The notes below the pieces were generated by a model. It was not told where the DNA came from. It saw only the letters and a list, made by a program, of their open reading frames with translations, and made no database searches. This document shows positions 3,677 to 7,502 of a stretch of 64,000 bases of DNA, piece by piece. The stretch is from Escherichia coli (GTDB taxonomy: Bacteria; Pseudomonadota; Gammaproteobacteria; Enterobacterales; Enterobacteriaceae). Position numbers and translations under genes: made by a program. How positions within the stretch are numbered: the first letter of the stretch is position 1; each line of letters opens with the position of its first letter. The stretch lies in NCBI RefSeq assembly GCF_011045215.1, contig NZ_CP049201.1; one strand, written 5' to 3'.

Positions 3677-4570
3677 ATGAATGGAAAATTGCAAACTTCA
3701 GATGTAAAAAACGAAACTCCATACAATATTCCCTTATTGATTAACGAAAATGTGATCTCCAGCGGAATTTCTCTGATCTCGCTCTGGCATACCTACGCCG
3801 ACGAGCATTACCGGGTGATCTGGCCGCGGGACAAGAAGAAACCGCTTATCGCCAACTCATGGGTTGCGGTGTATACCGTACAAGGATGTGGGAAAATTCT
3901 TTTAAAGAATGGCGAACAAATAACTCTGCATGGCAACTGTATTATATTTTTAAAGCCAATGGATATTCACTCTTATCACTGTGAAGGTTTAGTCTGGGAA
4001 CAGTACTGGATGGAATTTACCCCCACCAGTATGATGGATATTCCCGTTGGTCAGCAAAGCGTTATTTATAATGGCGAAATTTATAATCAGGAACTCACCG
4101 AAGTTGCTGAGTTAATAACTTCACCAGAAGCAATAAAAAATAATCTGGCAGTCGCTTTTCTGACGAAAATTATTTATCAGTGGATTTGTCTTATGTACGC
4201 AGACGGTAAAAAAGATCCACAACGGCGGCAAATTGAAAAATTAATTGCCACTTTACATGCCAGTCTGCAACAACGCTGGAGCGTAGCTGATATGGCTGCC
4301 ACGATCCCCTGTAGCGAAGCCTGGTTGCGTCGTCTGTTTTTACGCTATACCGGCAAGACGCCGAAAGAATATTACCTCGATGCGCGTCTGGATCTGGCGC
4401 TATCGCTATTAAAGCAACAAGGAAACTCGGTTGGCGAAGTCGCTGATACGCTCAACTTCTTCGACTCCTTTCATTTCAGCAAAGCCTTTAAACATAAATT
4501 TGGTTATGCGCCGTCAGCCGTGCTAAAGAATACGGACCAGCACCCAACGGATGCCAGTCCACACAATTAA
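3677..4570 (+). CDS. yidL: AraC-family transcriptional regulator, 297 aa
   Basis: C-terminal AraC-type helix-turn-helix region; start placed at MNGKLQTSD; divergent from yidK. Confidence 0.85.
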
Positions 4571-5886
4571 CGTAACTCTGGCCAGTACGCTTTGTTGGCC
4601 TCCAGCAACTCATCCAGAATAGCTTTGGCGACCGAGGCGCTCGGTACCGTTTTCGACAACGTAATCGCCTGCCACAGGTGCTGATATGAACGCTGTTCCC
4701 AGGCGTCCACGACCAGTTTTTCCACCGCCACTTGCTGACTCATTAACCCTTTCTGAAACTGCGGGATATCGCCGACCACCAGTGGTTCTGGTCCGTTGTG
4801 CCCGACCAGACACGGGATCTCGACCATCGCTTCATCAAAGTTATGAATTGCCCCGTTGTTAGGCACAATCAGCAACATCCGCTCCTGAGTGTTGAAGGCA
4901 ATTGCCGCCGCCAGATCGACGATGTATGACGCATGTTCGTCAATCTCCAGCTTGCCCGCCGCTGAATTTCCTGCCGCCGTAATGGCGCGGCAAGCATCGA
5001 AAACCTGTTTCTCGCGATGTTCCATCACCTCATTCGCGCGGGTATGTTCAGGGTTGGAATGCTGAACAACATAATCCGGGAAGAGATAATATTTCAGATA
5101 GGTGTTTGGTAATGTATCCGGGTCCAGTGCCTGGACATCCCGCGCTTTTGCATAGGTGTCGTTCCAGCTCGCTTCAGTATGCGTATCTTGCTGCGGTGGA
5201 ACATAACCGTGCTTAGAGACATATTGCCGCAGCTGGGGCATCAGGTCGTTGCCCTGCAAATCTTCAATTGATGTCCACCAGCCAAAGTGGTTCAGGCCGT
5301 AGTAGCGCACGCGCATCTGTTTGCGATCTTGCAGCCCAACAATTTGCGCCATCCGGCTTTCAATACCGATTGGCATGTCACAGATGTTGAGGATTTTCGC
5401 ATTCGGGCGCAGACGACGCGTGGCTTCTGCGACAATGGCTGCCGGGTTGGAGTAGTTGAGCATCCAGGCGTTTGGTGAATATTTTTCCATATAATCCACC
5501 AGTTCCAGGACGCCGCCAATGGAACGCATGCCGTACGCTATTCCGCCGGGTCCGCAAGTTTCCTGACCAACAACACCGTGGCGCAGCGGGATTTTTTCAT
5601 CCAGTTCGCGCATCGGGTACTTGCCGACGCGGATGTGCGCCATGACAAAATCAACGTCGCTGAATGCCACTTCAGGATCGGTGGTGTAACTAAACGCAAT
5701 GTCCGGCGCTTTTTCTTTAAGGATGACTTTACAGGCTTCGGCAATCACTTCCTGCCGCGCACCATCGTTATCATAAAATTTCAGTGCACGAAGCGGGAAA
5801 CGGTCCTGATTCGCCAGGAGCATCAACACGATGCCTGGCGTAAAGGTGCTTCCACCGCCTGCGACAACCACTGAGAATTTGGTCAT
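4567..5886 (-). CDS. glvA: 6-phospho-alpha-glucosidase (glycoside hydrolase family 4), 439 aa, intact
   Basis: N-terminal NAD-binding motif [12 protein letters not shown] and family-4 hydrolase features; immediately downstream of the PTS gene. Confidence 0.85.
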
Positions 5887-7502
5887 TATACTGCCTCCGT
5901 AATGGCAACATTTTCTGCTGATTGATGAGAATTAATTAAGCTATCGAGCTGTTCACGCAGCTGGGATACATGCAGACCAATGATCACCTGAATGGCATCG
6001 CCACTACGGAAGACGCCGTGCGCTCCCAGCTTTTTAAAGACTTCGTCATCCAGCGTTTGTGACATGTCATGCAGTGCAATACGTAAACGCGTCGCGCAAT
6101 TGTTGATGCTGGAGATATTGCCGACCCCGCCCAGGGCTTGCAGGATACCGGCAGCCTGATCCAGCTCTTTTTTTGGCTCTGCCGCGGTGGTTTGGCCTCG
6201 CGAGGCTTTGTATTCGGCTTTTGAGTAGAGTTTCACTTCCGCATCTTCACGTCCCGGCGTGCACATGTTGAACTGCAGAATCAGGGTGCGGAAAACCACG
6301 AAGTACAGCAGGGTAAAGCACAACCCAATGGCGATTTGGGTCAGCATCATATCCGCGTGGTTGCTGAACATCGGGATCCAGTTTTGCGGTAAAACCTGGT
6401 CAATCAGACCTCCGCCCATGTTGCCCACCACACCAAAGAGATACATCACGGTCGACATTGAGGCCGCAAGCACAGCGTGTACCGCAAACAGCAACGGTGA
6501 AATGAACAGGAAGGTAAATTCCAGCGGTTCGGTAATTCCCACCAGCATGGCGGTTAAGGTTGCGGGAATCAACAAACCCGCCACTTTTACCCGATTTTCC
6601 GGTGCGGCAGTGAAGTACATCGCTAAAGAAATGCCCACGGCACCAAAGATTTTTGAGTTACCGTGCAGGGCAAAACCGCCTTCCGGGAACAACGATTTCA
6701 GCGGCTCGGCGCTCAAACTGAACTCTTGTAGATGCTGCGCCCAGTACATCTGAATGCCGCCTTCAACAGCTGCCGGACCAAAGATAAACGGTCCGTAGAT
6801 GAAGTGGTGTAAACCGGTTGGGATCAGAATACGTTCGAGGAAGGTGTAAACCCACACCCCAAGCGCACCCGCCGAACGCAGGAACGCTTGCAGAGATTCA
6901 ATCCCCATTTGTACTTTTGGCCAGCCGAGCAATGTTAGCCAGGCGCAGGGGATCATCACCAGGAAGGCGATAATCACCACATAAGACGTCCCCTGGAAAA
7001 TGCCGAGAAACACCGGCAGTTTTTTATCGAACAGACGGTTATGCAGCGCCGTCACAATGCCGGAAATGATAATTGCGCCGATAATGCTGGTATCGAGGGT
7101 TTTAATCCCGGCCATCATTGTCAGACCGCTACCTGCCACCGCGTCCTGAGTGAAATCGACGCCGAAGTAACTTCCCCAGGTCATTCCCATCGCATTGATG
7201 AAATAGTTCCAGGTCAGGAAACTCACCATCACCGCCAGACAAGCACGCCCCTGCGCTTGCTTAGCAAGGCCAATGGGTAAACCGACAGCAAAAATCAGCG
7301 GCATATTACGGAATACCGTCCAACCGCCCTCTTCAATAATGTGTACGATTTGCGCGAATAAACTGTTCGGATCGGTCAGTGATTCCCCGACAAACATCGG
7401 GTTTTGCAGCAAGATGGCAAGACCCACCACAATCCCGGCGAAGGGAAACAGCAGCACTGGCGTGAACATCGCGCCGCCAAAGCGTTGAATTTGACTGAGC
7501 AT
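5886..7502 (-). CDS. glvC: PTS alpha-glucoside-type EIICB component, ~538 aa in one frame
   Basis: Polytopic membrane domain with a C-terminal IIB-like domain; start placed at [10 protein letters not shown] (ATG at 7500-7502); the longer track ORF is an N-terminal over-extension. Confidence 0.8.

Follow-up and report, generated by a model that had tools for sequence, protein, structure and literature searches.

Does Escherichia coli carry an intact alpha-glucoside phosphotransferase system (PTS) at the glv locus, whose K-12 genes have for many years been regarded as cryptic or truncated? The question is raised by a stretch of 64,000 nucleotides from E. coli contig NZ_CP049201.1 (assembly GCF_011045215.1; hereafter the window), in which the transporter gene glvCB, the glucosidase gene glvA, and the divergent regulator gene yidP are all open. 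An initial annotation of the window had singled out this locus as notable and suggested that it may encode a working alpha-glucoside PTS. Based on gene models, domain profiles, and genome comparisons, we conclude that the locus is very probably the ancestral, undeleted E. coli glv operon (glvCB-glvA), which corresponds to aglA-aglB of Klebsiella pneumoniae. It represents a known operon in a common, already known allelic state and not a new system. The open frames, the fused EIICB, and the intact yidP all speak for the suggested PTS, but the word "working" is not established, as glvA has lost a codon that other strains keep. This singleton one-codon deletion, the effect of which is uncertain, is the sole strain-specific feature at the glv locus.

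Gene models of the glv locus

In the six-frame list of open reading frames (ORFs), glvA is a full frame of 439 codons (1320 bp) with an ATG start, and the EIIC and EIIB domains lie together in one frame of 538 codons; both had been described correctly in the initial annotation, as had the divergent GntR-type gene yidP (Table 1). The ORF containing glvCB extends from 5886 to 7763 on the minus strand. The ATG at 7502 was taken as the start of the 538-aa protein because an AGAGGA Shine-Dalgarno sequence precedes it, the 1617-bp RefSeq models in other E. coli use it, and the alignment with TIGR02005 begins at residue 2. When aligned at the nucleotide level with three references from E. coli, glvA and glvCB showed no frameshift or internal stop, and the hidden frameshifts for which the initial annotation had allowed are absent from both genes in comparison with K-12 and other E. 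coli. The stop codon of glvCB and the start codon of glvA share the sequence TAATG, an overlap that argues for translational coupling of the two genes. Additionally, good Shine-Dalgarno sequences are retained at the glv genes. On the other side, yidL, likewise an open frame, is convergent with glvA, and their 3' ends share 4 bp.

Table 1. Features of the glv locus in window coordinates
Feature	Position	Strand	Basis or remark
yidL, AraC-family regulator gene	3677..4570	+	Pfam HTH_AraC, HTH_18, AraC_binding; RefSeq model; start and stop codons checked
glvA (aglB-type), 439-aa GH4 NAD+/Mn2+-dependent 6-phospho-alpha-glucosidase	4567..5886	-	ORF; PF02056; PF11975; identity to 6DUX and 1U8X; AF2 model
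8-bp direct repeat GAACCACT, distal copy	4781..4788	-	Bounds the K-12-type glvG deletion
Site of the strain-unique 3-bp in-frame deletion in glvA	4832..4837	-	Nucleotide alignments
8-bp direct repeat GAACCACT, proximal copy	5286..5293	-	Bounds the K-12-type glvG deletion
glvCB (aglA-type), 538-aa alpha-glucoside PTS EIIC-EIIB fusion without EIIA	5886..7502	-	TIGR02005; Pfam; motifs
glvCB codon 369, CAG (Gln) in the window	6396..6398	-	TAG (amber) in K-12
Divergent control region between glvCB and yidP, 295 bp	7503..7797	.	Five-strain comparison
Near-perfect 34-bp palindrome, AGAGATCTACGTTTTCG/CGAAAAAGTAGACCTCT	7648..7681	.	Candidate YidP operator by inference only
yidP, intact 238-aa GntR/HutC-type regulator gene, divergent from glvCB	7798..8514	+	Pfam GntR, UTRA; RefSeq models; start and stop codons checked

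Domain structure of GlvCB and GlvA

GlvCB matches the TIGR02005 profile (PTS-IIBC-alpha) over residues 2–523 with 959.2 bits against a cutoff of 607.3. A PTS_EIIC domain (residues 10–346) is followed by a PTS_EIIB domain (residues 453–482) in a single chain, with the EIIC motif GITEP at residue 322 and the EIIB motif NCATRLR at residue 468, which contains the phosphorylatable Cys469. The full-length match, the order of EIIC before EIIB, the EIIB cysteine, and the GITEP motif identify GlvCB as an alpha-glucoside PTS EIICB; no EIIA domain was detected in it by NCBIfam and Pfam profile searches. The exact GlvCB protein is found on at least 1,000 contigs, and the fused EIICB is the norm in E. coli. 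As to its naming, RefSeq calls the whole 538-aa EIICB a "PTS sugar transporter subunit IIB". The NCBIfam model NF007255 is an equivalog model of 161 positions, the length of the K-12 GlvB fragment, and matches GlvCB at residues 378–538 only. The product name thus appears to have been propagated from the truncated K-12 ORF, and naming the full-length EIICB after this fragment is misleading.

GlvA contains both domains of glycoside hydrolase family 4 (GH4), with 223.6 bits for the N-terminal, NAD+-binding Rossmann domain Glyco_hydro_4 (PF02056; cutoff 23.2) and 181.4 bits for Glyco_hydro_4C (PF11975; cutoff 24.1), and its GGGS motif occupies residues 10–13. Cys169-Asp170, His200, Tyr263, and Arg283 are all retained, and Cys169 and His200 are invariant in a 40-sequence alignment. 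In Bacillus subtilis GlvA, the metal-binding and catalytic residues are Cys171, Asp172, and His202, together with Tyr265; the roles of the first three were reportedly worked out by Rajan et al. in 2004. Window GlvA shares 89.5% identity with PDB 6DUX (912.8 bits), a 6-phospho-alpha-glucosidase of solved structure, and 73.0% with B. subtilis GlvA, PDB 1U8X (746 bits), whereas the GH4 6-phospho-beta-glucosidase 1S6Y gives a score of 208 bits. Moreover, its scores against the NCBIfam alpha-galactosidase and AglA models fall far under their cutoffs. GlvA is therefore nearer to the alpha-type enzymes than to 6-phospho-beta-glucosidases or alpha-galactosidases and falls within the alpha-specific subfamily AglB/GlvA/MalH. 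The AlphaFold2 (AF2) model of the 439-aa protein is confident throughout, with a mean predicted local distance difference test (pLDDT) score of 95.4.

Comparison with K-12 and related operons

The initial annotation described K-12 as having a truncated pseudogene glvG and separate genes glvC and glvB, and the MG1655 record agrees: glvG is an 815-bp pseudogene, and glvB (161 aa) and glvC (368 aa) are separate. These genes, glvC-glvB-glvG (b3683, b3682, b4556), occupy the same yidL-yidP locus as the window genes; the nucleotide sequences are approximately 99% identical, and the control region is shared. Translation of the 1617-bp K-12 stretch gave a single in-frame stop at the position of window Gln369, where K-12 has TAG for CAG; the division of the K-12 gene into glvC and glvB is due to this amber codon. 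Furthermore, K-12 glvG lacks 508 bp exactly between the two copies of the 8-bp repeat GAACCACT, and the frame is shifted. The window has neither the 508-bp deletion nor the amber codon but carries a 3-bp deletion of its own.

The gene order of the window, the 1617-bp EIICB, and the open glvA are shared by REL606, O157:H7, O145:H28, IAI39, SMS-3-5, CE10, and approximately 1,650 others. In the strains with an undeleted locus, glvA is 1323 bp long and encodes 440 aa, whereas that of the window is 1320 bp long and encodes 439 aa. REL606 differs from the window in yidP, which is frameshifted there and intact here. In the REL606 stretch 6402-7039, yidP is annotated as frameshifted beside open glvCB and glvA, and a frameshifted yidP could derepress the glv operon in E. 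coli B strains.

Among systems outside E. coli, the glv operon of B. subtilis (glvA-glvR-glvC, or malA-glvR-malP) encodes a GlvA that shares the NAD+/Mn2+ chemistry of GH4 and the catalytic residues, but its gene order and regulator are unlike those of E. coli. B. subtilis GlvR is of the RpiR type and is encoded inside the operon, whereas the E. coli regulator is of the GntR/HutC type and is encoded divergently. The counterpart of the E. coli operon is found in K. pneumoniae. PDB 6DUX and 6DVV are structures of K. pneumoniae AglB; 6DUX, compared above, has a full-length loop, NFDADAM, at the site where the window protein is shortened. Similar to GlvCB, K. pneumoniae AglA is a single EIIC-EIIB chain without EIIA. 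The function of the Klebsiella genes has been demonstrated, whereas the native E. coli glv genes are known here by sequence. With aglA and aglB of K. pneumoniae, E. coli K-12 can utilize isomaltose; EIIA-Glc of E. coli serves AglA, and B. subtilis GlvC also works with E. coli Crr (PMC5309279).

Distribution of the undeleted locus

Among the 5,426 complete RefSeq genomes of E. coli that were searched, 1,652 (30%) contain the segment that K-12 has lost, and REL606, O157:H7, and O145:H28 are among these. The undeleted glvA is therefore a common and already annotated state, and the view of the initial annotation that an intact locus is notable does not hold; it is the K-12 amber allele that is confined to just 348 genomes, mostly K-12 or laboratory derivatives among the 25 listed. 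Among the 40 undeleted genomes listed, all but one carry the annotation "6-phospho-alpha-glucosidase", and the remaining one has an insertion of a TnpB element. In this genome, E. coli NZ_CM173849.1, an RNA-guided endonuclease TnpB-family element lies within glvA, which is another independent route of disruption.

The exact K-12 deletion junction was found in 2,617 genomes (48%). A further group of approximately 1,150 genomes (21%) matches the locus query over less than 80% of its length. In the seven listed from this group, nothing but the 3' end of yidL remains, and the one that was examined has yidL next to yidE, with glvA, glvCB, and yidP all gone. Approximately 21% of complete E. coli genomes thus appear to lack glvA-glvCB-yidP altogether, as shown in one genome and implied for the rest. 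Apart from the window allele, there are at least four disabling routes: the 508-bp deletion (48%), the apparent loss of the whole locus (~21%), the K-12 amber codon, and the REL606 yidP frameshift together with the TnpB insertion in one genome. K-12 is hence unrepresentative at the glv locus. The significance of this result is limited, as the K-12 genes have long been known as cryptic or truncated and the undeleted form is annotated in approximately 1,650 complete genomes. Uptake and cleavage of alpha-glucosides, for example isomaltose or palatinose, may nevertheless be possible in approximately 30% of E. coli, which is relevant to metabolic models and to feedstock engineering.

A one-codon deletion in window glvA

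The initial annotation overlooked that the 439 codons of window glvA are one fewer than the usual 440. The difference is a 3-bp in-frame loss within a GATGAT repeat: the window reads TCATCA at the deletion site, where other E. coli have TCATCATCA. Relative to the other E. coli alleles, TTTGATGATGAA has become TTTGATGAA, and the protein sequence NFDDEAM has become NFDEAM, with the loss of one Asp at approximately residue 351. An 81-bp query over the deletion site matched 1,517 E. coli genomes, none of them without the 3-nt gap, and the top identity was 96.4%. The exact 439-aa GlvA is on record from a single E. coli contig only (QIF14501.1 / WP_164475889.1). Strain 33F4, the closest complete genome, has neighboring protein accessions in common with the window strain, yet its glvA is the normal 440-aa form.

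For comparison of the affected loop, diverse GH4 relatives were collected from among 1.84 billion representative proteins. In the 40-sequence GH4 alignment, Asn343 and Glu356 are invariant, and the segment from the one to the other comprises 15 residues in 39 of the 40 sequences and 14 in the window protein alone. In the AF2 model, the deletion site lies in a loop (residues 343–353) between two strands (residues 335–342 and 354–362). The model remains confident across the shortened loop (pLDDT ~96–97), but AF2 responds little to changes of this kind and cannot judge whether the enzyme works. The lost Asp belongs to a pair of positions at which GH4 proteins differ in residue (DD, AD, PT, KD, SD). 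Its loss may be tolerated for this reason, but activity cannot be assumed.

Control region and YidP

YidP contains the domains of a GntR/HutC-type regulator, with 74.1 bits for the N-terminal GntR winged helix-turn-helix (PF00392) and 106.5 bits for the C-terminal UTRA effector domain (PF07702). The control region that it shares with glvCB varies at only three positions among the five strains compared. The motif AGAGATCTA lies at 7787-7807, over the yidP start codon, and also occurs in the 34-bp palindrome. The palindrome and the recurrence of this motif are both candidates for YidP operator and autoregulation sites, and the palindrome is a plausible operator. A weak CRP-like site with two mismatches (7681-7696) abuts the palindrome; CRP-like matches are no commoner across the window than expected by chance.

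Proposed function and competing explanations

By analogy with AglA/AglB and with GlvC/GlvA of B. subtilis, GlvCB, an EIIC-EIIB fusion of the glucose-PTS family, would import an alpha-glucoside and phosphorylate it at O-6. Likely substrates are methyl-alpha-glucoside, isomaltose, and sucrose isomers, for example palatinose and turanose. GlvCB lacks an EIIA domain of its own, so its phosphoryl groups would have to arrive through EI, HPr, and EIIA-Glc (Crr), a route that we infer from AglA and GlvC. GlvA would then cleave the 6-phospho-alpha-glucoside by NAD+/Mn2+-dependent oxidation and elimination, the redox-elimination mechanism of GH4 (cited in PMC10628242), to yield glucose-6-phosphate and the aglycone. 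The glvCB and glvA genes would be translationally coupled, with the divergently encoded YidP as their probable repressor.

Several observations weigh against this proposal, the first of which concerns GlvA itself. In a hidden Markov model (HMM) alignment of the hits that cover both Asn343 and Glu356 (96 other GH4 sequences plus the window; 28–66% identity), the segment has 15 residues in 95 of the 97 sequences and 20 in one, and the window alone has 14. Window GlvA thus departs from a fixed 15-residue spacing in GH4, which is an empirical regularity found in this analysis and no published criterion. The most serious alternative, to which we assign a somewhat less than even chance, is that the glv ORFs are intact but the system is broken in this strain, with the codon loss inactivating or destabilizing GlvA as the first step of another decay. 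Consistent with this, the deletion is absent from all genomes matched by the 81-bp query, the protein is confined to one contig, and the close relative 33F4 has the normal allele. Moreover, other lesions lie nearby in the window strain (a yidK frameshift and a nonsense codon in a pentapeptide-repeat gene), and several inactivations of the glv locus have clearly occurred within E. coli. However, the lost residue is at a family-variable position, every catalytic and metal-binding residue is retained, and the AF2 model is confident over the loop, with the insensitivity stated above. On this evidence, the chance that window GlvA retains useful activity is about even, or slightly better. That the Asp deletion is a real lesion, inactivating or changing specificity and adding one more independent hit on the glv locus, seems to us unlikely; if it is one, such repeated loss would suggest that alpha-glucoside PTS uptake is selected against in E. 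coli, or at least not selected for. In either case, the allele illustrates that an intact ORF is not to be equated with a working gene.

The remaining observations concern expression and phenotype. A simple sigma-70 scan found no consensus match in the control region, and the window contains no genes for Crr, EI, or HPr. In identification tables, E. coli is reportedly listed as negative for methyl-alpha-glucoside and palatinose; such negative scores would suggest that even intact glv loci are silent. The E. coli type strain is negative on both sugars in a table that is not linked to glv genotype (PMC4334874), and the type-strain and E. albertii phenotype tables tie no phenotype to glv genotype. 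A literature search on glvA, glvC, glvG, palatinose, and B versus K-12 returned no expression or growth data for the native locus. The undeleted locus could accordingly be cryptic in E. coli generally, like bgl, being silenced or so tightly repressed that it plays no role in the growth of any strain, an explanation that we consider possible but doubtful. It would fit the lack of a consensus promoter and the negative scores, and the K-12 homologues have been regarded as cryptic or truncated (PMC5309279). Furthermore, approximately 70% of genomes have lost or inactivated the locus, with at least three different routes involved, which fits weak selection. Nevertheless, the coding sequences are kept without lesions in 1,652 genomes of distant lineages, the control region is almost invariant, and the translational coupling and good Shine-Dalgarno sequences have been retained.

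An error of sequencing or assembly, in a strain that truly carries the common 440-codon allele, is an improbable source of the 3-bp deletion: the window allele is a singleton from one assembly outside the complete RefSeq set searched (best identity there 99.1–99.4%), but the 13 indels found against 33F4 over 41 kb of collinear sequence are mostly paired, compensating changes in divergent or intergenic sequence rather than scattered homopolymer errors. Near the locus, only two indels fall in conserved genes, the glvA deletion and a 5-bp tandem duplication in yidK. Both the loss of a GAT-GAT unit and this duplication are typical of replication slippage in short tandem repeats and unlike homopolymer errors; the glvA deletion is therefore probably real rather than an artifact. 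Poor assembly as the main source of the indels was likewise rejected, given their number and the absence of a homopolymer-error pattern.

Other differences in the window

The yidK gene (solute:sodium symporter; 1795-3510, minus strand) is frameshifted by the tandem duplication of ATTAT at approximately 2235-2244. Its ORF encodes 445 aa instead of 571, and the gene is intact in K-12, 14EC033, and 33F4. In the pentapeptide-repeat gene (39435-40622, plus strand), which lies beside an espY4-like effector gene, codon 199 is an in-frame stop; this gene is intact (395 aa) in 33F4 and O145:H28 RM12761. At 48780-48987, the window is without the lpf-O113 long polar fimbria operon, which 33F4 has between pstS and glmS. 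At 41092-44016, the bgl operon and yieK/yieL of 33F4 are absent, and an 835-aa ORF is present instead. This ORF is annotated as "type III effector protein" in O145:H28 genomes, and its region is presumably the known bgl/Z5211-5214 alternative locus.

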